A DNA stretch of 53,159 nucleotides, counting the filler, from an uncultured virus (IMG/VR IMGVR_UViG_2049941000_000878) (lineage: Duplodnaviria > Heunggongvirae > Uroviricota > Caudoviricetes). It is 6 parts of one record of this genome, joined end to end, with 100 filler letters (N's around TTAATTAATTAA, not from the genome) between each part and the next. Parts side by side here need not be neighbours in the genome. Positions count along the whole stretch, not along the records: positions 17,119 to 33,324 come from IMGVR_UViG_2049941000_000878; 5 more parts are not named here. One strand, 5' to 3'. Below the pieces are notes generated by a model. It saw only the letters and a program-made list of their open reading frames with translations, had not been told where the DNA came from and made no database searches. The position numbers and the translations under genes were made by a program. Of this stretch, positions 788 to 52,736 are shown one piece after another. The stretch's first letter is position 1, and each line of letters starts with the position of its first letter.

Positions 788-837
788 NNNNNNNNNNATT
801 CCGGGCGCTATTATGTGCGTAGTTTAACCCGAAGTGT

Positions 838-4267: not shown

Positions 4268-4402
4268 TCCGGCCATCTTCTTAATAGATGCGGAAGGGAA
4301 GCAAGTTTTCGACCGTGACGGCTACGCGATAGCCGTGGCCGCCGCGGCGGAACTTGCAAGCCGGAGTTCCCACAAACTACCATCGTAAAAAATCGTACAT
4401 CT

Positions 4403-4930
4403 ATGGCTTGTAATCAGACTATATCCGGAATCGTCCAGGACTGCTTGACCAGCAAGGGCGGCGTGGCGGAGGTCTATCTTGCGAACTATGAGGACGTCAC
4501 CGACGTGACCGTGTCCAGCGACAAGGTCAACGGCATCACAATGGCGTCCGGCAAGAAGTTCAAGAGGTTCTACTTCCGTCCCGGCACCTCGTCGATGACT
4601 TCTACCCTGAACATCGACAACGCCGCCGGCGTGAACTTCGTGCAGACCTTGCTGACGATGCTGTTCTCGCGCATGGAGACCACCAAGCGCGTGGAGATGT
4701 CGGCCCTGGCCGTGAACGACCTCCGTGCCATTGTCAAGGACGCCAACGGCGTCTACTGGCTGCTCGGCGAGGAGGAACCGGTCATCGCCAACGCGGGAGA
4801 CGGCCAGACCGGAACCGCAAAGACCGACGCCAACCGCTACTCCATCACCCTGGAGGACAACAACGGCACCTTCCCGAAGGAGATCCTCATCGGCAGCGGC
4901 GGCGTGGACCTCGACGCCATCGTCGAATAA
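4403..4930 (+). CDS. Major tail (tube) protein
   Basis: 175 aa; DC..SKGG, AIVKDANG.YW.LG and GQTGTAKTDAN.YSITL motifs. Confidence 0.75.
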   Translation: MACNQTISGIVQDCLTSKGGVAEVYLANYEDVTDVTVSSDKVNGITMASGKKFKRFYFRPGTSSMTSTLNIDNAAGVNFVQTLLTMLFSRMETTKRVEMSALAVNDLRAIVKDANGVYWLLGEEEPVIANAGDGQTGTAKTDANRYSITLEDNNGTFPKEILIGSGGVDLDAIVE

Positions 4931-13356: not shown

Positions 13357-13384
13357 TCGCTATATTTGTAGTCGCATACTATCG

Positions 13385-13425
13385 AGGAAGGTCCCGCAGG
13401 CAGCACGCCGGGGGCCTTCCTTTTT
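13385..13425 (+). terminator. Intrinsic terminator after the lysis genes
   Basis: AGGAAGGTCCC...GGGGCCTTCCT followed by a T run. Confidence 0.7.
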
Positions 13426-13579
13426 GCTGAAAACGTCACGATGTTGTCGGAAGAAAATGGCCAAAGTGTCAAAAATGACACCCCGCGCATCTCTGCGCAG
13501 GGTGCCTGCAATTCTAACCAAAAAGACCGGAAAAACGGCCACCCACGCACGTCAGGGGGCGGTCAGCGCNNNNNNNNNN

Positions 13580-14236
13580 GATGCGGCTGAAGGGGTCGCG
13601 CGGTATCAATATCCGCCCGGTGTCCTCGTCGTTGTAGCGCGCACGCGCAGCGTCGTAGATGTGCGCCAGCTTCATGACGTGACGCGAAGCCGTCCCGCCG
13701 CCCTTCGGCTTGCCGGTCTCCACCAGCGCCTTCTTCGTGTACGACCACTGCAACTTGTTCTCCGCGTCCGTCGCCTCCATGTAGTCCAGGATCAGCCGCC
13801 GCGTGATGTCGTTCACGTCAAGCTCGCGCCGCCCCAGGTACCGTTCCAGCGAACGCAGCGCGCCCTCGTAGTTCCGCCGCGTCGACTCCGCCTTGCAGGT
13901 GATCCACGAATCCGCGAAGGTGAAGAAATCCAGCCGGAACGCATCGGCACGCATGGCAGCGCGGATGTGGTCCACCAGTTGCACGACCGTCATGTCCTCC
14001 AGGTCGAAGGGGTTGATGTCCGCGATGGCGGCGCGCATCTGGACGATGATCTCGTCGCAGCGCGACAGGATCTCCGGGTTCTTTATCTTCAGGGAGCGCG
14101 TGAGGTCCGAGGGCCGCGCGTACAGGGACGTGGGTATGCGCCGCTGCCCGCGGTTGTGCAGGACGCGGATCTTGACGTTGTAGGTGCCGTCCCCTCGCTT
14201 GTCGCCGGGGATGACCACCGCCTTGAATGATGGCAT
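13580..14236 (-). CDS. int: Tyrosine integrase, N-terminal arm-binding and core-binding part
   Basis: K..DGTYNVKIRV.H....RIPT, DFFTFA and STRRNY...L..LE.YLG motifs of Bacteroidota integrases. Confidence 0.85.
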
Positions 14237-14303
14237 GATGTATCAGTGTTAAGCGTGCCGACAACACCGGACGAGCCGACATTTATCCGACAACATTTGC
14301 ACC

Positions 14304-15990: not shown

Positions 15991-16157
15991 ATGGGAAAGA
16001 AACTGATAATTCCGGACGTGAATTATTTGCCGTATGCGCTTAATACAGATGCGCTGCCGCTTGCGGACTATGCGGTCCGCGGATATTACGACTCCACCAC
16101 GAACAAGATCATCGACACACCCGCTGATAATGGCTATCAGGTGGCAGTCCTGCCCAT
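15991..16157 (+). CDS. Tail-module accessory protein N-terminus
   Basis: MGKKLIIPDVNY start directly after the CotH-like gene. Confidence 0.45.
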
Positions 16158-16167
16158 NNNNNNNNNN

Positions 16168-16359
16168 ACGGGCGTCCTCATCGCCTGCGTGTGCATCTTC
16201 TTCATCGATCCCATAGGCGAGATAGCGAACAGCGCCATCTCCATCGTGTCGGAGTTCCTGGTGTTGTGCGGCGCGCTGCTGGGAATCAAGACATCCTTCG
16301 ACATCAAGCTTAAGCGGTTCCAGTCAGAAATCGACGACATCAAGAGAAACGAGAAATGA
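16168..16359 (+). CDS. Putative holin C-terminal part
   Basis: TM-PIGEI.NS-TM-charged tail; upstream of the endolysin. Confidence 0.55.
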   Translation, partial: TGVLIACVCIFFIDPIGEIANSAISIVSEFLVLCGALLGIKTSFDIKLKRFQSEIDDIKRNEK

Positions 16360-16544
16360 ACAAGGAAACACTCAAGAAACTGGCGGCGTTCTTCTGCACC
16401 TGCTTCGGTGTGGTAGGCGCTCTGGGCGGGACGATCGTCGCCGCCGTCAACGGCTCCGGCTTCATCGCGTTCTGCGTGGCAGCGTGCGGTGCTATGGCCG
16501 CGCCGTTCATACTGAAACTATGGAAGGATGATCCCTGCGAGTAA
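16356..16544 (+). CDS. Small two-TM protein
   Basis: Hydrophobic 62-aa ORF overlapping both neighbours. Confidence 0.55.
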   Translation: MNKETLKKLAAFFCTCFGVVGALGGTIVAAVNGSGFIAFCVAACGAMAAPFILKLWKDDPCE

Positions 16545-16946
16545 GCATTATTTCGACCTGTGGGAGTTCATCAAAAGCGACACCGCCGAGGCGAAGGGGA
16601 TAAGCAATTTCCCGACGTTCGAGGTGGTGGCGCGTCTCTCGCAGTTGCGTGACGAGATCCTGGACCCCATGCGCGAGGCGTGGGGCGGTCCGCTGGTGGT
16701 GACGTCCGGCTATCGCTGCAAGGCGCTGAACAAGGCGGTCGGAGGCGTGGCGAACTCCGCGCACCTGTCCGGGTGGGCGGCTGACATCCGTCCGACGGAC
16801 AAGCGACGCACGGCGAAGTTCATCCTCTGGGCGGCGTGCTGGCTGGAGGAGAACCGCATCAACTACGACCAGGCGATAGACGAGAACGTGAAGGGTGAGA
16901 GGTGGCTGCACATCGCCCTGAAGTCCAACGACGGAAGGCAGCGCCG
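16528..16946 (+). CDS. Endolysin, peptidase M15 (Zn D-Ala-D-Ala peptidase fold)
   Basis: TSGYRC..LN..VGG...SAH..G.AADI and WLHI motifs. Confidence 0.88.
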
Positions 16947-17118
16947 NNNNNNNNNNCAGATCGGGGGCGAGAGGTGGCTGCACATCGCCCTGAAGTCCAA
17001 CGACGGAAGGCAGCGCCGNNNNNNNNNNNNNNNNNNNNNNNNNNNNNNNNNNNNNNNNNNNNTTAATTAATTAANNNNNNNNNNNNNNNNNNNNNNNNNN
17101 NNNNNNNNNNNNNNNNNN

Positions 17119-17448
17119 GGTCACATCCAACGACGTCCTCCACTCTGCGGTGGTAATTACACCGCTTATGTAAATAAGGAACTCAAAGCCTTGAGCGCAT
17201 TTGATTGTATAATCGCCATTGTCTTGAGTAATCAGCTGTGAGACCATACGGATGCGCGTATTGTCGGCGTAGTTGGTGATGTTTCCCGAAGAATTGGGCG
17301 CGTTTATCGAACCGACCTCAAATTCTCCCAAGTCAATCTTGCTGTTTCTCTCAAGGATTGTATCTGTTCTGTCTCCCAAGACCTTTCCCATTTGGGCGGT
17401 CAATGCTTTGTCGGCGCCTCCTGTGTGAAGGTCATTCACCAGGCCGAT
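17119..17448 (-). CDS. Tail fibre fragment (another variable module)
   Basis: VNDL.TGG.DKALTAQMGK.L fibre motif followed by low-GC beta-rich sequence. Confidence 0.55.
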
Positions 17449-17459
17449 NNNNNNNNNNG

Positions 17460-17804
17460 ATCGCCGACCCCTCGGTGTCTTGGTGCGGCCAGCTCGGACA
17501 CGGTCTCGTCTTCGCTTACGGACGTTTCCGACCGAGGGCGTTACCCTTCGTCTGCTGGCTGAACGTGCCGATGGCGCGGGAACACGGTATCCGCTACTTC
17601 GACGAGACGCGGACCTGGAAGCTGGAGCCGACGATGTTCTACGATACGGGGGCGTCCTTCTATCTCGACTGCCGACGGTTCGACCTGCCGGAGCGCCAGA
17701 TCTGCTGGGAGGATTACGCCGTCCACTTCAAGGGCGGCAGCTGGGATGACCGCGACCCGGCGGAGTTCCTGTGGGAGAACCGCGCGCTGTACGTTTCCAA
17801 GTGA
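17460..17804 (+). CDS. Glycosyltransferase, C-terminal half
   Basis: The first ~50 bp overlap 18727-18776; YDTG and HFKGGSW motifs. Confidence 0.7.
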   Translation: MADPSVSWCGQLGHGLVFAYGRFRPRALPFVCWLNVPMAREHGIRYFDETRTWKLEPTMFYDTGASFYLDCRRFDLPERQICWEDYAVHFKGGSWDDRDPAEFLWENRALYVSK

Positions 17805-17811
17805 GGGCGCA

Positions 17812-17897
17812 GCGCTATTATTATAGTGAGAGTTCAAAAGTTGACAGAATCTTGAGATTATCAGTGTTAAGCAGGGGCCGCAGTGATGCGGCCCTTT
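17812..17897 (+). ncRNA. Candidate small antisense RNA, unit 2 (motif + variable region + GUGA hairpin)
   Basis: GCGCTATTATTATAGTG, ~44 nt, then the 10-bp stem AGGGGCCGCA-GTGA-TGCGGCCCTT; contains 14 nt complementary to the integrase leader. Confidence 0.55.
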
Positions 17898-17923
17898 GCT
17901 ATTTTATAGTGAAGTCTTTTTTT
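17898..17923 (+). ncRNA. Start of candidate small RNA unit 3 (truncated by gap)
   Basis: GCTATTTTATAGTG immediately after the unit-2 hairpin. Confidence 0.4.
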
Positions 17924-17933
17924 NNNNNNNNNN

Positions 17934-18276
17934 GGTCCTTCAGGCGCGTCTGCGGCGTCTTGGTGCGGTTTCTGACGGCACATGGTGGCTGCCGGTCCTG
18001 CGCGACCTTGACGACGACAAGAGCGTGGCATCGCAGAAGGTGAACCGCGGCCTGTCGAACTGGTGCAGGAAGAACGGCGTGGACCGCTTCACCTTCTACG
18101 CGGCGCGTCACACATGGGCGACGCTGGCGAGGAAGGCCGGCGTGGAGAAGGCGCTGGTGGACGAGTGCCTGTGCCATGTGGGTGATTACGAACTCACGGA
18201 CATCTACGCCGAGCGCGACTGGGACCTCATCAACGGCGCAAACGCGAAGGTGCTGGCGTTGTTTAGTTGGGACTAA
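17934..18276 (+). CDS. int: Tyrosine integrase, catalytic C-terminus
   Basis: TFYAARHTWATLA, L.H and TDIY motifs. Confidence 0.88.
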
Positions 18277-18297
18277 ACCTTTCCAATGGGCCGGCTG

Positions 18298-18379
18298 GCG
18301 CTATTTTATAGTGTCAAAAATTTTAGTTTCATAGTGGTTTGAGTAATTCGCGCCTGCGCCGTGACGGTGCGGGCGTTTT
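18298..18379 (+). ncRNA. Candidate small antisense RNA, unit 1
   Basis: GCGCTATTTTATAGTG, ~36 nt whose complement reads like a translation start, then the CGCCTGCGCC-GTGAC-GGTGCGGGCG-TTTT hairpin. Confidence 0.55.
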
Positions 18380-18387
18380 CCGTATGT

Positions 18388-18776
18388 ATGGATATAGCCT
18401 TCGTTCACTACAATACGCCGGAGCTGTCCGGCGCGCTCGTCCGCAGCATTCGCAAATGGACGCCGGACGCGCGGATCACCGTCTTCGACAACAGCGACCG
18501 CAAGCCCTTCCCGGAGACGGAGGGCGTCACTATCTACGACAACACCCGCGCCCAGATTATTGACTTCGACGCGTTCCTCGAAAGGTTCCCGCGACGGAAG
18601 CTCGACGAGAAATCGAACTTCGGCAGCGTCAAGCATACGATGTCCGTGGACTGGCTGTTTGACGTCCTGACGGACGGGTTCGTCCTGCTCGACTCGGACG
18701 TCCTGCTGAAGCGTGACGTCTCGGAAATCGCCGACCCCTCGGTGTCTTGGTGCGGCCAGCTCGGACACGGTCTCGT
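18388..18776 (+). CDS. GT-A fold (GT2-like) glycosyltransferase, N-terminal half
   Basis: VHYNTPE, VFDNSD and LLDSD (DxD) motifs. Confidence 0.75.
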
Positions 18777-18786
18777 NNNNNNNNNN

Positions 18787-19011
18787 ATGCTCCGACGGCT
18801 GGACGCGCTTATCAAGCTCGTTCGCAATCTTTATGGCCTTTGCTACCAGCGAATCCGTCAGCAGCCGCGGGTTCCCATTCATGGCTGAACTCAATGTGGT
18901 CCTATTTATATCCAGCAGGGCGGCAAATTCCGTCTGATTTCTGACGATGCCGGAGGAAAGGCAGCGCTCGTATGCGTCCTTGAGCGCGTCCAGTTTGACG
19001 TTTTGTTCCAT
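18787..19011 (-). CDS. CI-like repressor N-terminal HTH (variant A)
   Basis: NQTEFAALLDINRTTLSSAMNG XRE-type HTH, divergent from the early genes. Confidence 0.75.
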
Positions 19012-19069
19012 AGTGTAGATTTTTTGAAAATAATTGTCGAGAAATTGTTGATTATTTGATTTTTTGTTG

Positions 19070-19099
19070 TATCTTTGTAACACCTTACAAACAAAGTTA
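19070..19099. promoter_or_regulatory. Overlapping divergent promoters with a palindromic operator candidate
   Basis: TATCTTTG (+, 19070-19077), TAACTTTG (-, 19092-19099) and TTTGTAA-cacc-TTACAAA (19074-19091); the variant at 19438-19467 has the same two-promoter layout. Confidence 0.65.
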
Positions 19100-19123
19100 A
19101 ACAAAATTCAACAGCACACCACT

Positions 19124-19312
19124 ATGACACGCGAAGAAATTACCCAAAGAATCGAGGCCCTTTCGGAGGAAATGTTCCTGCTCGGTAAAGACTGCACCTC
19201 CCAGCACTTCAATGAAGAAGGGAATATCCGTGCCGCCCTCCGCATCGCAGGCGAACTTCTAAAGAACACATCCTACACGCTGGACGACATCGCCGGCGAG
19301 TTGAGCGCATAA
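19124..19312 (+). CDS. First early gene, hypothetical (variant at 19493-19684)
   Basis: Two homologous copies (LG..CT..HF...G..RA.L..AGE.LKNTS). Confidence 0.7.
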   Translation: MTREEITQRIEALSEEMFLLGKDCTSQHFNEEGNIRAALRIAGELLKNTSYTLDDIAGELSA

Positions 19313-19685
19313 GACTGAACCGAGGGGCGTGTTTCGGAAACGCCTGGCAGCCTTCGTAAGTCCAGGAGCGCAGGTNNNNNNNNNNAAATAAACGTGAAAT
19401 TTTTACACAAATGTTTTGTTTTTACAAAATAAATGTGTAGATTTGCATCAAACAATACACAAAGGTACAACAAAACTCAAAACAACAAGGCCATGACAAT
19501 CGAAGAACTCTCCCAGAAGATAGACGATCTCTCCCAGAAGGTCTACGAACTTGGAAGGAGCTGCACCGATGAACACTTCCAGCAGGACGGCAAGCACCGC
19601 GCGATTCTCTGCCTCGCCGGAGAGTTCCTGAAGAATACGTCCTTCACTATGGATTCAATCTTTGAAGAATTAACTACCGAATAAT

Positions 19686-19880
19686 ATGGCAACTGACACC
19701 CCCTTACTCACTCGTTTACGCGAAATGAACATCGGCGACAAAGTGACCGTGAGCATCGACACCTACGGCTACAACACCGTGCGCCGCTACGCCTGCGACC
19801 TCGGAGTGTTTCTGGACCGCCGTTACTCTACGCACGTCAACCGCGCCGACCGCACCTACACCGTCACCCGCTTATCGTAA
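19686..19880 (+). CDS. Small Cro/Xis-like DNA-binding protein (variant at 21969-22154)
   Basis: L..M.IG......Y.TVR.YA..LG family; position in the early operon. Confidence 0.55.
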   Translation: MATDTPLLTRLREMNIGDKVTVSIDTYGYNTVRRYACDLGVFLDRRYSTHVNRADRTYTVTRLS

Positions 19881-19977
19881 CGCCATGATCCCGCAGAACG
19901 TCCCCGCACAATACCGCAACCTCNNNNNNNNNNGGAGCCGTGACGGTCCCGCCTGCTTCTTTTATGTCCGGGCGTGT

Positions 19978-20722
19978 CTACTGGATCATCCGGAGGAGGA
20001 CGCGCCAGACGCCGCGGATCTCGTCGCGTGTGACGACTATCGGCTGGTAGGCGGGATTGTCGCTTCGCAGGATGAACGTGCCGTTCTCGCCCTGGTCGAT
20101 GCGCTTCAGGACCGGACCGTCCACGGTGTCGATGACGTGGACCTCACCCCATGCGATGACGGACTTGACACGTTTGAGAAGCACGCGCGCGCCCGCAGGG
20201 AAGCCCGGAGCCATTGAGTCGCCTGTTACCTCGAAGGCCAGCTCTGCGCCGCGTATGGGCGACGTGATGCGCTCGCACTCCCATTCCTCGACACCCTCGG
20301 AGAATCCCTGGAGGGCGCCGCCNNNNNNNNNNTGGAGCCATTGAGTCGCCTGTTACCTCGAAGGCCAGCTCTGCGCCGCGTACAGGGGACGTGATGCGTT
20401 CGCACTCCCATTCCTCGACACCCTCGGAGAATCCCTGGAGGGCGCCGCCTCTGACGGCGTAGGGGACGATGGGGACGGTGTCGGCTGGAGGCGCTTCCTC
20501 GCCCTCCATCACCGGACCTTCACCGGTCAATAAATATTCCATGCGGAATCCGAACACGTCGGCCCAGCTCCGCGCCACGGTCGGTCCGAGCTTGCGCCCG
20601 GATAACTGATTGCTGACCGCTTGCTGGGAAACACCCAGGCGGTCGGCTGCATCGCTCATGCTGATACCGTTTTCTGATAAGAACGCCCTCATCTTGGACG
20701 CGATCTCTTTTCCTTTTTCCAT
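19978..20722 (-). CDS. CI-like repressor (variant B): XRE HTH plus S24 peptidase, in overlapping fragments
   Basis: AADRLGVSQQAVSNQL HTH; V.GDSM.P and LKR catalytic motifs. Confidence 0.85.
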
Positions 20723-21148
20723 ANNNNNNNNNNNNNNNNNNNNNNNNNNNNNNNNNNNNNNNNNNNNNNNNNNNNNNNNNNNNNNNNNNNNNNNNNNNNN
20801 NNNNNNNNNNNNNNNNNNNNNNNNNNNNNNNNNNNNNNNNNNNNNNNNNNNNNNNNNNNNNNNNNNNNNNNNNNNNNNNNNNNNNNNNNNNNNNNNNNNN
20901 NNNNNNNNNNNNNNNNNNNNNNNNNNNNNNNNNNNNNNNNNNNNNNNNNNNNNNNNNNNNNNNNNNNNNNNNNNNNNNNNNNNNNNNNNNNNNNNNNNNN
21001 NNNNNNNNNNNNNNNNNNNNNNNNNNNNNNNNNNNNNNNNNNNNNNNNNNNNNNNNNNNNNNNNNNNNNNNNNNNNNNNNNNNNNNNNNNNNNNNNNNNN
21101 NNNNNNNNNNNNNNNNNNNNNNNNNNNNNNNNNNNNNNNNNNNNNNNN

Positions 21149-21485
21149 CGACGAGGTAGATCTTCCCCAGCGTGGAGGCGGAAGCCGTCGGAAGGGTGGC
21201 CACGTCGACGTAGTCCATGCCGTTGATGGCGGCGAGAAGCTGGTCGACCTCGCTCTTGGTGTAGTAGTCCGCCAGCGACTGCACGGCGGTGTTCGCCTTC
21301 GCCAGCGCAGCCTGCACGTCCGCGTCCATGTCGGTGGACGGGATGCCGCTTGCCGGCTTGACGTATTTCTGCGCGACGACGGTGGTCAGTGCCTCCAGGG
21401 CGGCGGTGAGCTGCGCCACCGCGGTGAACCTCTCGTCCATCTCTTGTCCGGTAAATACGGACTGATAGGTTAGTTCGTTTGCCAT
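21149..21485 (-). CDS. Tail fibre conserved N-terminus
   Basis: YQS.FTG.EMD, YYTKSEVD and LPTASASTLGKIYLV motifs; follows the tail terminator gene. Confidence 0.65.
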
Positions 21486-22158
21486 TGTTCTCAATTATTA
21501 AAATTTTCGGATAATCACATCGGAGGCGACCTGCTCCCAGCCGTCGTCGCCGCGGAGGCCGCCGTCCGCGATCTCGGCGCAGTCACTTCCGGCCTCGGCC
21601 AGCAGGACCACGGAACAATAGACGCCGGCGCACTCGTCGGCGAAGCGCTGGTTGAAGGTCTGGAACTCGTAGGACTCCGGCTCGATCCCGGCGTCCCGGA
21701 GGATGCGCAGGACGTTCTGCAAGACGTCCATCCCCACGCTCTGCACTTCGACTTGGTTGGCGATGTCGTTGCGCAGGCGGTCGACATAGAACAGCGTAAA
21801 TGAATAGCGGACCCAGTCCGGGGCCGTAGCGTCGGAACGGTGCCGCCCCTGGGTCCACGCGAACACGCCGTAGCGTGCGTCCGCGTAGGAGTTGAGGCGG
21901 AACACGTCGTTCTCCACTATCATCGCCACGGCAGGCTGCACCGCCGCNNNNNNNNNNTGAAAAAGAAAATGGAATCACTACGCAACCGTTTCGACGCGAT
22001 GAAGGTCGGCGAGGTCATGGCCGTCAGCTTTGACGAATATGCCTACCGCACCATCCGTTCCTACGCCTCCGAGCGCGGCCTGGTCCTGGGCCGTGTCTAT
22101 TCTACGCAGTTAAGCCGCCAGACCCGCTGCATCTTCGTCACCCGCAAATCGTAACGCC

Positions 22159-33306: not shown

Positions 33307-33424
33307 ACCGAGCAACGGAGAAAANNNNNNNNNNNNNNNNNNNNNNNNNNNNNNNNNNNNNNNNNNNNTTAATTAATTAANNNNNNNNNNNNNNNNNNNN
33401 NNNNNNNNNNNNNNNNNNNNNNNN

Positions 33425-43025: not shown

Positions 43026-43124
43026 NNNNNNNNNNNNNNNNNNNNNNNNNNNNNNNNNNNNNNNNNNNNTTAATTAATTAANNNNNNNNNNNNNNNNNNN
43101 NNNNNNNNNNNNNNNNNNNNNNNN

Positions 43125-51206: not shown

Positions 51207-51285
51207 CGCGCGCCTGCGCGCCCGGAAACGGCTCTCATTCCACGATGGGGGCCGTCGCTATTTATAGTCGTAAGAATCTACGACT

Positions 51286-52084
51286 ATGCCATCTATCTGG
51301 AAAGACTATTTTGTCAGCTTCGGAGCAGTCGACGAGGCGGACTACACCATTCAGACCGGCGGCGAGACCATCTACGCCGGACACGCCGTCAGGCGCCCCG
51401 ACCAGCAGCAGCTCACCGTCCGGATCAATGACGTCTGCGCCGACTACCTCGCGCACGTCGTCCCCTCCGTCGCATCGCGCACCGCGGTCAACGAACCCTC
51501 CGCCGCCACCTTCACCGTGAAGGACGCAGGCGGCACCACCGTCGACAGCGTGCAGTTCGTCGCCGACTGGTCCCACGACTACGACCACGCCACGTCCGCG
51601 CTCGCCGATCCGGTGAACGGTCGCGTGTCAGCCGACCAGGCCATCGTCCTGTCGGTCCTGTCCACCGTCGCCACATCCGCGACGCTCCGCTACAAGAGCG
51701 GCACCACCGACACCATCTCCGTGTCCTCCGCAGGCGGACCCCTCCAGGTCGTGTCCATACCGCTGGCATCCATAGCGAACCTCGCAGCCGTCACCGTCGG
51801 CGGACACACCTACACCGTCGTCGGCGCCTGCGCACGCTACGCCCTGCTGTACGTCAACGCCTTCGGCGGCTGGGACACCCTGCTGATGGAGGGACGCGAA
51901 GGCCTCGCGGACTCCTACGACCGCCACACCATGCAGCAGCGCTACGACAACACCCAGCGCAGCGCACGCGGCACCGTCGAGTACGTCAACGAGGTCACGC
52001 GCACATGGACGCTCCGCACCGGCTGGCTGAAGGGCGACGAGGCGTTCCGGATGCACCACGTCCTCGGCAGCACACACGTCTACC
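51286..52084 (+). CDS. Distal-tail-like protein (truncated)
   Basis: YVN.FGGWD and L.TGWL......M...L.S..VY motifs; precedes the large tail gene. Confidence 0.6.
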
Positions 52085-52736
52085 NNNNNNNNNNNNNNNN
52101 NNNNNNNNNNNNNNNNNNNNNNNNNNNNTTAATTAATTAANNNNNNNNNNNNNNNNNNNNNNNNNNNNNNNNNNNNNNNNNNNNACGACCACCCTCTACG
52201 TCGTAGTGCCGGAGGGCGACGGCTGGACCATCACCAACAGCGCGGACTGGATAACCGTCACGCCGCTTTCCGGCGCAGGGAACGGTACCCTCGCCGTCAC
52301 CGTGCCGAACTACACCGGAACGACGTCACGGCAGGGCATCATCACCGCCACCCGCGACGGCTACACACAGGGCGCGATGTTCTACGTCATCCAGAACCCC
52401 GCNNNNNNNNNNNNNNNNNNNNNNNNNNNNNNNNNNNNNNNNNNNNTTAATTAATTAANNNNNNNNNNNNNNNNNNNNNNNNNNNNNNNNNNNNNNNNNN
52501 NNCAGAAATACCTCACCGAGGACCGCGCCGACCGCGTGGACCTCATGCACGACGGCAACGACGTGGAAGGCGTCCACCTCGTCCAGTGGTTCATCAAGGA
52601 CAGCGCGAAGGGCNNNNNNNNNNTTGCAAAGATACGGCAAAAAAATAGATATGCAAAACATCAGTGAATTCGAAAAAAACGTGTAAATTTGTACTTTGTT
52701 TTAAGAGTGAAATTTTAATTATCTCATAAATCAGTT

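Follow-up and report, generated by a model that had tools for sequence, protein, structure and literature searches.

The stretch of DNA analysed here, 53,159 nucleotides (nt) with filler included and referred to below as the window, derives from an uncultured virus of the class Caudoviricetes (IMGVR_UViG_2049941000_000878), and the subject of this report is a series of short units, each built of a promoter-like head, an AT-rich segment and a GC-rich hairpin, that lies between the integrase gene and a convergent repressor gene. As assembled, the window is a scaffold in which N runs link 88 fragments; these are out of order and include many redundant strain variants. A Pfam scan of its 88 open reading frames (ORFs) identified phage genes for an XkdF-like protease, a terminase, an integrase and an S24/helix-turn-helix (HTH) repressor, together with BACON-domain proteins, a fragment of ribosomal protein L13 and a SusC-like fragment; no sigma-factor gene was seen among these ORFs, and ARAGORN found no tRNA or tmRNA in the whole window. 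Promoters of the Bacteroidetes type carry TTTG at -33 and TAnnTTTG at -7. In the window the early genes at 19125 and 19495 have a TAnnTTTG box upstream and no Shine-Dalgarno sequences, and the nearest integrases in genome collections belong to rumen metagenome-assembled genomes (MAGs), mostly of Bacteroidia/Bacteroidales. Some of these MAGs are labelled Firmicutes, which we take to be binning noise. Because of the promoter boxes, the lack of Shine-Dalgarno sequences and the rumen origin of the nearest integrases, we treat the window as a temperate phage of rumen Bacteroidales, the host being assigned from gene content.

The 3' part of a tyrosine integrase gene (113 codons and stop; Pfam Phage_integrase) occupies positions 17935-18276 on the plus strand, and its 5' part (Pfam Phage_int_SAM_5 / Arm-DNA-bind_5) is located on a separate fragment at 13580-14242 on the minus strand. 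Downstream of the 3' part is unit 1, followed on the plus strand by the 5' part of a glycosyltransferase-like ORF of 223-235 amino acids (aa) at 18388-18776, which begins 9 nt past the T run of unit 1 and 12 nt past its hairpin. The 3' part of this ORF lies at 17460-17804 (plus strand, stop at 17802-17804; 81% DNA identity to the relative L119), and the two parts are joined by an exact 50-nt overlap (17460-17509 is identical to 18727-18776). In the closest well-assembled relative, L345, whose integrase is 93% identical to the C-terminal part of the window's integrase over 111 residues, the order is integrase, two units, the same ORF, two units and the repressor stop. The overlap and the L345 layout both uphold the order proposed by an earlier reading made from the DNA alone (the sequence-only reading), namely integrase, unit 1, glycosyltransferase-like ORF, unit 2 and the head of unit 3. 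The S24 peptidase part of the repressor gene (Pfam Peptidase_S24) lies at 19981-20322 on the minus strand.

Three heads had been reported for these units, and all three are present in numbers far above shuffle expectation: GCTATTTTATAGTG occurs at 17898 and 18300 (2 matches against 0.05 expected) and GCTATTATTATAGTG at 17814 (1 match against 0.02 expected). In unit 1 the head (18300-18313) corresponds to the -10 and start region of a longer promoter-like motif on the plus strand (18279-18307), which consists of CTTTCC (18279-18284), a 17-nt spacer and TATTTT (18302-18307). An AT-rich segment of 36 nt (18314-18349) leads to a hairpin at 18350-18376 that has a 12-bp stem and is followed by TTTT. 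The predicted RNA of about 68 nt (18312-18379, plus strand), its start being placed some 5-8 nt after the -10, would thus contain an AU-rich part with TTTCAT at 18327-18332, the hairpin and the T run to 18379. Unit 2 is similarly arranged on the plus strand, with a promoter-like motif at 17793-17821 that overlaps the end of the glycosyltransferase-like ORF (GTTTCC at 17793-17798, a 17-nt spacer and TATTAT at 17816-17821) and a predicted RNA at 17827-17899 that comprises a 44-nt AU-rich part (17829-17872) lacking TTTCAT, a hairpin at 17873-17896 with a 10-bp stem and GUGA loop, and TTT. Unit 3 (17898-17923, plus strand) has a -10 and start region and no -35; it directly follows the hairpin of unit 2 and is cut by a gap at 17923, such that it is represented by its head alone and the array in the window is incomplete. 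A head placed right after a hairpin and opening a full unit is also found in unit 2 of L348 and unit 4 of L349, and by inspection the hairpin loop CGTGAC lies 17 nt before the -10 in both of these relatives.

Folded from head to T run, unit 1 reaches -25.7 kcal/mol (z -2.4) and unit 2 reaches -28.8 kcal/mol (z -3.0), and without the head the values are -24.4 kcal/mol (z -3.5) and -23.0 kcal/mol (z -3.1), respectively. The description of two strong hairpins, each preceded by 35-45 AT-rich nt, is therefore accurate for units 1 and 2. A fourth hairpin had also been described as abutting the repressor stop. On the plus strand at 19934-19980 there is indeed a GC hairpin of the CCGTGACGG class followed by the stop of the convergent gene (19978-19980); in the window this hairpin (19934-19960) is truncated by a gap and its fold is no more stable than those of shuffled sequences (z -0.2), and the claim holds instead for the relatives L120, L119 and L345, where the hairpin is found next to the repressor stop.

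The hairpins carry a consistent signature of strand. The centre of the hairpin is GNGA in 56 of 76 non-redundant units and its complement TCNC in none of the 76, and the tails are rich in T, with at least 4 T in the 9 nt at or after the stem end in 61 of 76. Among the homologues of the unit 1 hairpin (10 copies, 9 of them distinct), 98.1% of cells pair, compensatory changes are observed in 5 of 12 pairs (a level reached by 0 of 500 shuffles), and two invariant G-U pairs would be A-C mismatches on the other strand. Because of these GNGA centres, T-rich tails, compensatory changes and invariant G-U pairs, we conclude that the hairpins are selected as RNA on the integrase strand, in the form of intrinsic terminators. 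More specifically, they combine a GC-rich stem-loop showing covariation with a U tract directly 3' of the stem, and of the roles suggested earlier for the common hairpin that of a terminator is thus supported by GNRA loops, T tails and covariation alike. Two conserved classes of hairpin top can be distinguished, GCAGNGATGC and CCGTGAGG/CCGTGACGG. The first of these is enriched in host MAGs (20-43 matches compared with 4-18 for the control) and is probably a common host terminator design, not a special handle. A search of positions 16000-22000 against Rfam gave no match to a described RNA family at E 1 or better.

The heads, for their part, belong to a motif of fixed spacing, (G/C)TTT(A/C)C followed by 17 nt and TATTAT, of which they form the -10 part. 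An alignment of first units yields the consensus (G/C)TT(T/G)(A/C)C, 17 nt, TATTAT, with GTTGAC in one relative; a form in which the distance to TTTCC varies, suggested by L120 unit 3 and L124, was rejected in favour of the fixed 17-nt form. The window contains four copies of GCGCTATTWT, all on the plus strand, against 0.07 expected, and two of TTTCCR-N12-GCGCTATTWT against 0.00 expected. In the window (805-814 and 1170-1179), G001 (7664 and 10707) and G003 (15895 and 18994), the XkdF-like protease gene and another conserved ORF each have the same motif on their own strand, 18-33 nt upstream of the ATG. G002 has the motif before a structural gene (12514) with a different -35, and a fifth, slightly variant copy (51240-51270) precedes the window ORF at 51287. 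Across all viral contigs there are just 83 matches to the motif, and 6 of these are in G001 and G003. The earlier description of the head as promoter-like is thus supported by the occurrence of the same fixed-spacing motif before structural genes, and we infer that it represents a second, sigma-70-like promoter class, distinct from the TAnnTTTG boxes found at the early genes.

As direct repeats adjoining the gene of an integrase with an arm-binding domain, the heads could in principle be sites acting at the DNA level, that is, arm-type binding sites of the attachment region for integrase or excision factor. However, the motif and its fixed upstream partner also stand before structural genes, far from the integrase, so that the heads are not confined to the attachment region as integrase arm sites/attP would be, and the candidate core upstream of the integrase gene is a different conserved sequence, GCAATTCTAACC. 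Of all the explanations considered here, we regard this one as the least probable.

The unit architecture is conserved in relatives, which were collected with the integrase fragment from viral contigs, genomes and metagenomes. Counted as lower bounds, since some loci are truncated, and according to our own hairpin criteria, 2-7 units follow the integrase in 7 of the 12 closest loci among viral contigs, 2-5 units are present in the closest relatives (L345-L349), and metagenome loci have at least one unit in 34 of 53 cases and at least two in 24 of 53. Under strict criteria (energy of -16 kcal/mol or lower, GNRA centre, T tail and AT-rich upstream region), 13 of 15 hairpins in four complete relatives are located inside the integrase-repressor interval; in the window only units 1 and 2 pass the same filter. 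A lack of conservation in relatives, one of the outcomes that would have spoken against the sequence-only reading, is thereby discounted. Exact copies of the head GCTATTTTATAGTG also occur in at least 118 stretches of the viral contigs, which were rejected as chance matches, the unit architecture being found in 0 of the top 25 ranked by downstream fold energy.

Rapid turnover of the variable part, which supports the sequence-only reading in this respect, is evident both between relatives and between strains. When first units are aligned, promoter and hairpin are kept and the middle diverges. A contig of run X7 represents a strain variant whose differences from the window are almost confined to the variable part of unit 2, where it has 13 substitutions and 5 small insertions (17827-17860), with no difference listed past 17860, that is, in the hairpin and next head. 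Another X7 contig, of 22 kb, shares with the window only the hairpin plus head at 17874-17906.

A single motif is shared among the variable parts. TTTCAT is present in 13 of 25 spacers, compared with a shuffle mean of 1.4, and ATGAAA in none of the 25; in the larger set TTCAT is present in 36 of 76 units (shuffle mean 7.2, maximum 15 in 1000 shuffles) and ATGAA in 5 of 76. In at least 8 of the 36 units with TTCAT, the CAT is the start codon of an opposite-strand ORF of 47-49 aa, here named orfX, which has the conserved C-terminus DPE.MLRLVDLIFFLDD..PS. Overall, orfX was recognised on the minus strand between the repressor and integrase genes of 27 loci (for example L356 3243-3389, L371 3017-3163 and L372 2900-3049, with 24 further loci), where it encodes 22 distinct acidic proteins of 42-64 aa. 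Searches of Pfam, PHROG and Atlas gave no lead for these proteins, which form a new small acidic protein family.

The relationship between orfX and the units is revealing of their origin. In the short orfX subfamily, all 13 distinct proteins have the promoter motif antisense within their N-terminal codons, mostly 19-22 nt before the CAT, and in all 12 with enough flank the interval between orfX and the repressor gene contains a strong hairpin, 19-30 nt past the CAT and followed by a T-rich tail. The 9 members of the long subfamily all lack the promoter motif, and even the strongest hairpins near them are weaker or 56-73 nt away. The -10 and -35 elements coincide with the orfX codons AAT-ATA and GTA-AAC, which are rare choices in phages of 60% GC, and the peptide that they encode, NIE.PE.V, is conserved solely in those orfX copies that contain the promoter; because of both observations, a constraint at the DNA level seems indicated. 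Because the promoter lies antisense in the N-terminal codons of orfX and the hairpin beyond its CAT, the ancestral unit would be a cis-antisense RNA gene covering the translation start of orfX. The antisense idea put forward for the window therefore stands in the sense that the homologous unit in related phages is exactly antisense to the orfX start; the targets claimed for it within this phage are at chance level, as described below.

A reading of the same motif on the minus strand would make the units minigenes, the ATG opposite each plus-strand CAT opening a tiny ORF on the repressor transcript for a leader peptide or minigene product. Each TTTCAT does provide a minus-strand ATGAAA in a gene-start-like context, which in relatives is the true start of orfX. 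Outside orfX, however, these ORFs have 3-23 codons and no preferred length, a few read-throughs of 29-58 codons lack the orfX motif, the lengths approximate chance for stop-rich, AT-rich sequence and no peptide conservation was seen, while the GNRA loops, G-U pairs and U tracts belong to the other strand. We therefore consider minigenes very improbable.

orfX is absent from the window and from G001-G003 by tblastn. The window units possess a putative promoter of their own, in the form of the motif with its fixed spacing, and overlap with the start of a target gene is encountered only in relatives that have orfX of the short type. Because no opposite-strand gene is present in the window, its units are not filed here as cis-antisense RNAs and would be better described as orphan derivatives. 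The geometry of the ancestral arrangement nevertheless persists while the flanks diverge: the CAT follows the -10 by 22 nt in unit 1 of the window and by 21-22 nt in the first units of L345, L348 and L121, and in the first units of this clade the sequence between promoter, TTTCAT and terminator is not alignable.

The units are probably real small non-coding transcription units and a variant of the antisense RNAs of phages. In its full form, which we rate at slightly better than an even chance, this reading holds that they produce short plus-strand RNAs driven by promoters, that leaky terminators stand at their ends and that they derive from an antisense RNA against orfX. A full unit would comprise the promoter (G/C)TTT(A/C)C-17 nt-TATTAT, an AU-rich segment of 36-44 nt and an intrinsic terminator made of a GNRA-capped GC stem and U tract, and would yield an RNA of about 65-75 nt. 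In relatives with orfX this RNA would run across the start codon and leader of orfX and stop at the hairpin that separates orfX from the repressor gene, and UUUCAU would be conserved because the ancestral RNA crosses the orfX start codon. In the clade of the window the body of orfX would have been lost, with the promoter, the anti-start motif at 21-22 nt and the terminator kept; the units would then have multiplied in tandem, and a glycosyltransferase-like moron would have come to lie among them, to be read from the unit 1 promoter through the unit 1 hairpin. The orphan units, if active, might act in trans on translation starts by means of the UUUCAU segment, or might insulate the repressor gene from convergent transcription. 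The motifs, their conservation, the strand-specific RNA signals and the orfX overlap in relatives are direct observations, and it is the promoter identity of the motif, the production of discrete RNAs and any continued action of the orphan units that we infer.

Several observations weigh against this reading. A conserved head had been attributed to each unit, and in relatives this does not hold, the full promoter or head being absent from most internal units. The motif is sigma-70-like and not of the TAnnTTTG type seen before the early genes (19070 and 19436). Unit 2 of the window lacks TTTCAT. The glycosyltransferase-like ORF starts 9 nt past the T run of unit 1, whose hairpin would be an inefficient terminator if the same promoter drives the ORF. 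No RNA run was listed for positions 17934-18776; the four runs that contain this stretch are contigs of unknown kind, and they yielded strain variants only.

Searches for targets were likewise negative, although by their design they leave room for short seed pairing. The 25 spacers, compared with their own phage genomes, match at shuffle level apart from head repeats; one of the 25 (L121, 12 nt) is nominally below 0.05, at 0.045 uncorrected for 25 tests. For unit 1 the only exact complementary match above chance is the head repeat itself (14 nt, in the head of unit 3), the match at 19118 on which the sequence-only reading relied being 10 nt long. For unit 2 the longest complementary match, 11 nt, was reached in 31% of 200 shuffles, and for spacers whose longest match is 10 nt that length was reached in 44-78% of shuffles. 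By RNAduplex against 158 start regions of the window, with dinucleotide shuffles, unit 1 has p 0.14 and unit 2 has p 0.28, and the target proposed at 19124 ranks second by duplex energy, at about the null mean. The claim that the variable parts are complementary to translation starts thus finds no support above chance by exact match or by duplex energy. Compared with all fetched phage and MAG loci, a small database, the spacers have no antisense match at E 0.05 or better, and the matches that do occur are solely to homologous units in sense orientation. The units of L201 and L192 compared with the MAGs that carry these prophages gave nothing below E 0.06.

The orphan units could be slowly decaying relics. 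A further proposal, that they are a battery of fast-evolving, trans-acting RNAs directed against start codons, retained by the prophage after the loss of their cis target, which would block orfX-like or early genes of incoming related phages or host mRNAs for surface proteins beginning AUGAAA, is in our estimation unlikely.

The proposal from which this investigation began was a modular set of guide RNAs independent of CRISPR, in which the variable part would pair with a phage or host translation start and the hairpin would serve as a protein handle. The outline of the units invites such a proposal: a conserved head and hairpin surround a variable middle, strain variation is concentrated in the middle of unit 2, and the hairpin tops form two conserved classes. 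The claimed matches, however, are no better than chance and antisense matches to other fetched phages were not found at the E value given above, the hairpins differ in sequence and end in terminator-like U tracts, and the surroundings of the arrays revealed no associated conserved protein gene. There is thus no evidence for a CRISPR-like guide system, the modular guide set is not sustained, and we consider it quite unlikely. In common with the minigenes and the DNA-level sites, a guide system fits the data poorly.

The main rival holds that the units are a stack of leaky terminators insulating the convergent repressor gene from transcription of the integrase and moron genes, that the spacers are decaying 5' ends of orfX together with moron remains, and that there is no small RNA function. 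The hairpins have every feature of a terminator and are placed between convergent genes, the spacers turn over rapidly, the internal units are mostly promoterless and no targets were found; the enrichment of GCAGNGATGC in host MAGs noted above also favours this explanation. What it does not readily account for is the retention, in the window, L119, L120 and L345, of a full promoter without an ORF at the start of the repressor-proximal array, with nothing but units between this promoter and the repressor stop. Neither does it account for the maintenance of TTTCAT at a spacing of 21-22 nt in clades lacking orfX while the flanks diverge, and although one terminator would do, up to 7 are kept. We regard a terminator stack with decaying spacers as a serious but doubtful alternative to transcription units derived from an anti-orfX RNA.

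The ORF that interrupts the array had been labelled a glycosyltransferase. It has no sequence match in Pfam, PHROG or PDB, its fragment has no match among viral contigs and its region none among GenBank phages. A model of the L345 orthologue, built from a 5-sequence alignment (predicted local distance difference test, pLDDT, 74.6; predicted template modelling score, pTM, 0.78; the only good model out of 5, the remaining 4 being poor), matches glycosyltransferases of the GT-A type, among them LgtC at E 1.4e-6. Because of this match the label is plausible at the level of the fold, although it is not borne by any sequence family. The ORF is found after one unit in the window, two in L345, three in L119 and L348, four in L349 and seven in L121, and in all six its start is at most about 12 nt from a hairpin; from this position, read-through of the hairpins would follow, unless a minimal head precedes the ORF as in L349. 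In the more distant relative L122, inspection showed a lipoprotein-like ORF (MKRILIALVFLLVAGC...; 4330-4660, minus strand) where the units would otherwise lie between orfX and the integrase gene. By this inspection, the interval is an insertion spot for morons.

Other features of the window were noted in the course of this work. Upstream of the integrase gene, at 13360-13520, a promoter box of the Bacteroidetes type, TATATTTG, is followed by a strong hairpin with TTTTTG, a second hairpin and, immediately behind the latter, the conserved GCAATTCTAACC; the same layout is present in L120 (2760-2930), L121 (2750-2915), L125 (2738-2890) and L128 (2833-2970). The promoter box and the TTTTTG hairpin delimit a candidate RNA of about 50 nt. 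GCAATTCTAACC is common to phages whose integrases are just 56-59% identical to that of the window and is possibly the attachment core. The early region includes two paralogous ORFs of 62 aa (MT.EE...) at 19125-19312 and 19495-19684, each with its TAnnTTTG box (19070 and 19436). The former adjoins a divergent HTH gene (18787-19016, minus strand), and a 7-bp inverted repeat, CATAGTG/CACTATG, spans both start codons of this divergent pair. Islands of 12 bases with 0% G+C, each between two runs of 44 N, occur at 17063-17074, 33369-33380, 43070-43081, 52129-52140 and 52447-52458 and are probably an artefact of assembly or masking.

Full-text literature searches found no report of small RNAs from phages of Bacteroidota, and a 2025 review of phage small RNAs contains no word beginning with 'bacteroid' (PMC12197685); regulatory RNAs of Bacteroidota phages are thus essentially undescribed. 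The locus may offer a sigma-70-like class of phage promoter in a phylum where the principal sigma factor recognises another motif, and, within the lysogeny module, a cis-antisense RNA whose partner, orfX, is a new small protein family. It may also offer a natural series in which the target was lost and the RNA genes were kept and multiplied, which would bear on how trans-acting small RNAs originate from cis-antisense RNAs.

The sequence-only reading did not recognise the units as a described system. As that review outlines them, however, antisense RNAs of about 70 nt that run from promoter to terminator are classical in temperate phages, among them sar, OOP and c4 (PMC12197685). The closest likeness is to sar of P22, an RNA of 68/69 nt that pairs with the translation start of ant (PMC12197685): in the outline given there, sar, like the units that overlap orfX, is a promoter-to-terminator RNA of the immunity region, opposite a small regulatory gene whose translation start it covers. 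There is no relation between them in sequence or in Rfam, the host phylum and promoter type differ, and the units of the window, in contrast to sar, lack a cis target and are tandem and orphan. OOP of lambda, described there as a 77-nt RNA antisense to cII (PMC12197685), is also a short antisense RNA that adjoins lysogeny genes and has a promoter and a terminator of its own, and by the same account it acts on a neighbouring lysogeny gene. It overlaps the 3' end of its target and is present in a single copy, whereas the units overlap the 5' end, and the two are not homologous. A comparison with type I toxin-antitoxin systems, in which an antisense RNA faces a small hydrophobic membrane toxin, does not extend to orfX, which is acidic and shows no hydrophobic span on inspection of the alignment.

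CRISPR arrays resemble the units in that similar structured elements alternate with variable segments of about 40 nt. In the units, however, the hairpins are not identical, only the heads repeat and the U tracts are terminator-like; no spacer match to foreign elements was found among the fetched phage and MAG loci, a small database, and there is no cas gene among the 88 window ORFs by Pfam, as had been stated earlier. Sibling small RNAs in multiple copies are found in LhrC1-5 of Listeria and Qrr of Vibrio. Multi-copy Pas small RNAs encoded by prophages have been reported from pathogenic Escherichia coli (10.64898/2026.05.13.724894). As far as that report describes Pas, all three resemble the units in being related small RNA genes with terminators, on a mobile element or in tandem, with a copy number that varies between strains; each copy nonetheless has its own promoter and a conserved seed, whereas most internal units lack a full promoter and only UUUCAU is common to the units.

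For a role of the orphan units in trans, a model is c4 of P1/P7, an RNA of 77 nt that acts on the ant mRNA near the ribosome binding site and underlies heteroimmunity (PMC12197685). In the review's account it is an RNA immunity element whose specificity bases differ between related phages; it is processed from a longer transcript and has known targets, in which it differs from the units. If the orphan units do form a battery acting in trans, they might provide a multiplexed, RNA-based superinfection immunity like that of c4, in which the variable flanks would confer specificity.

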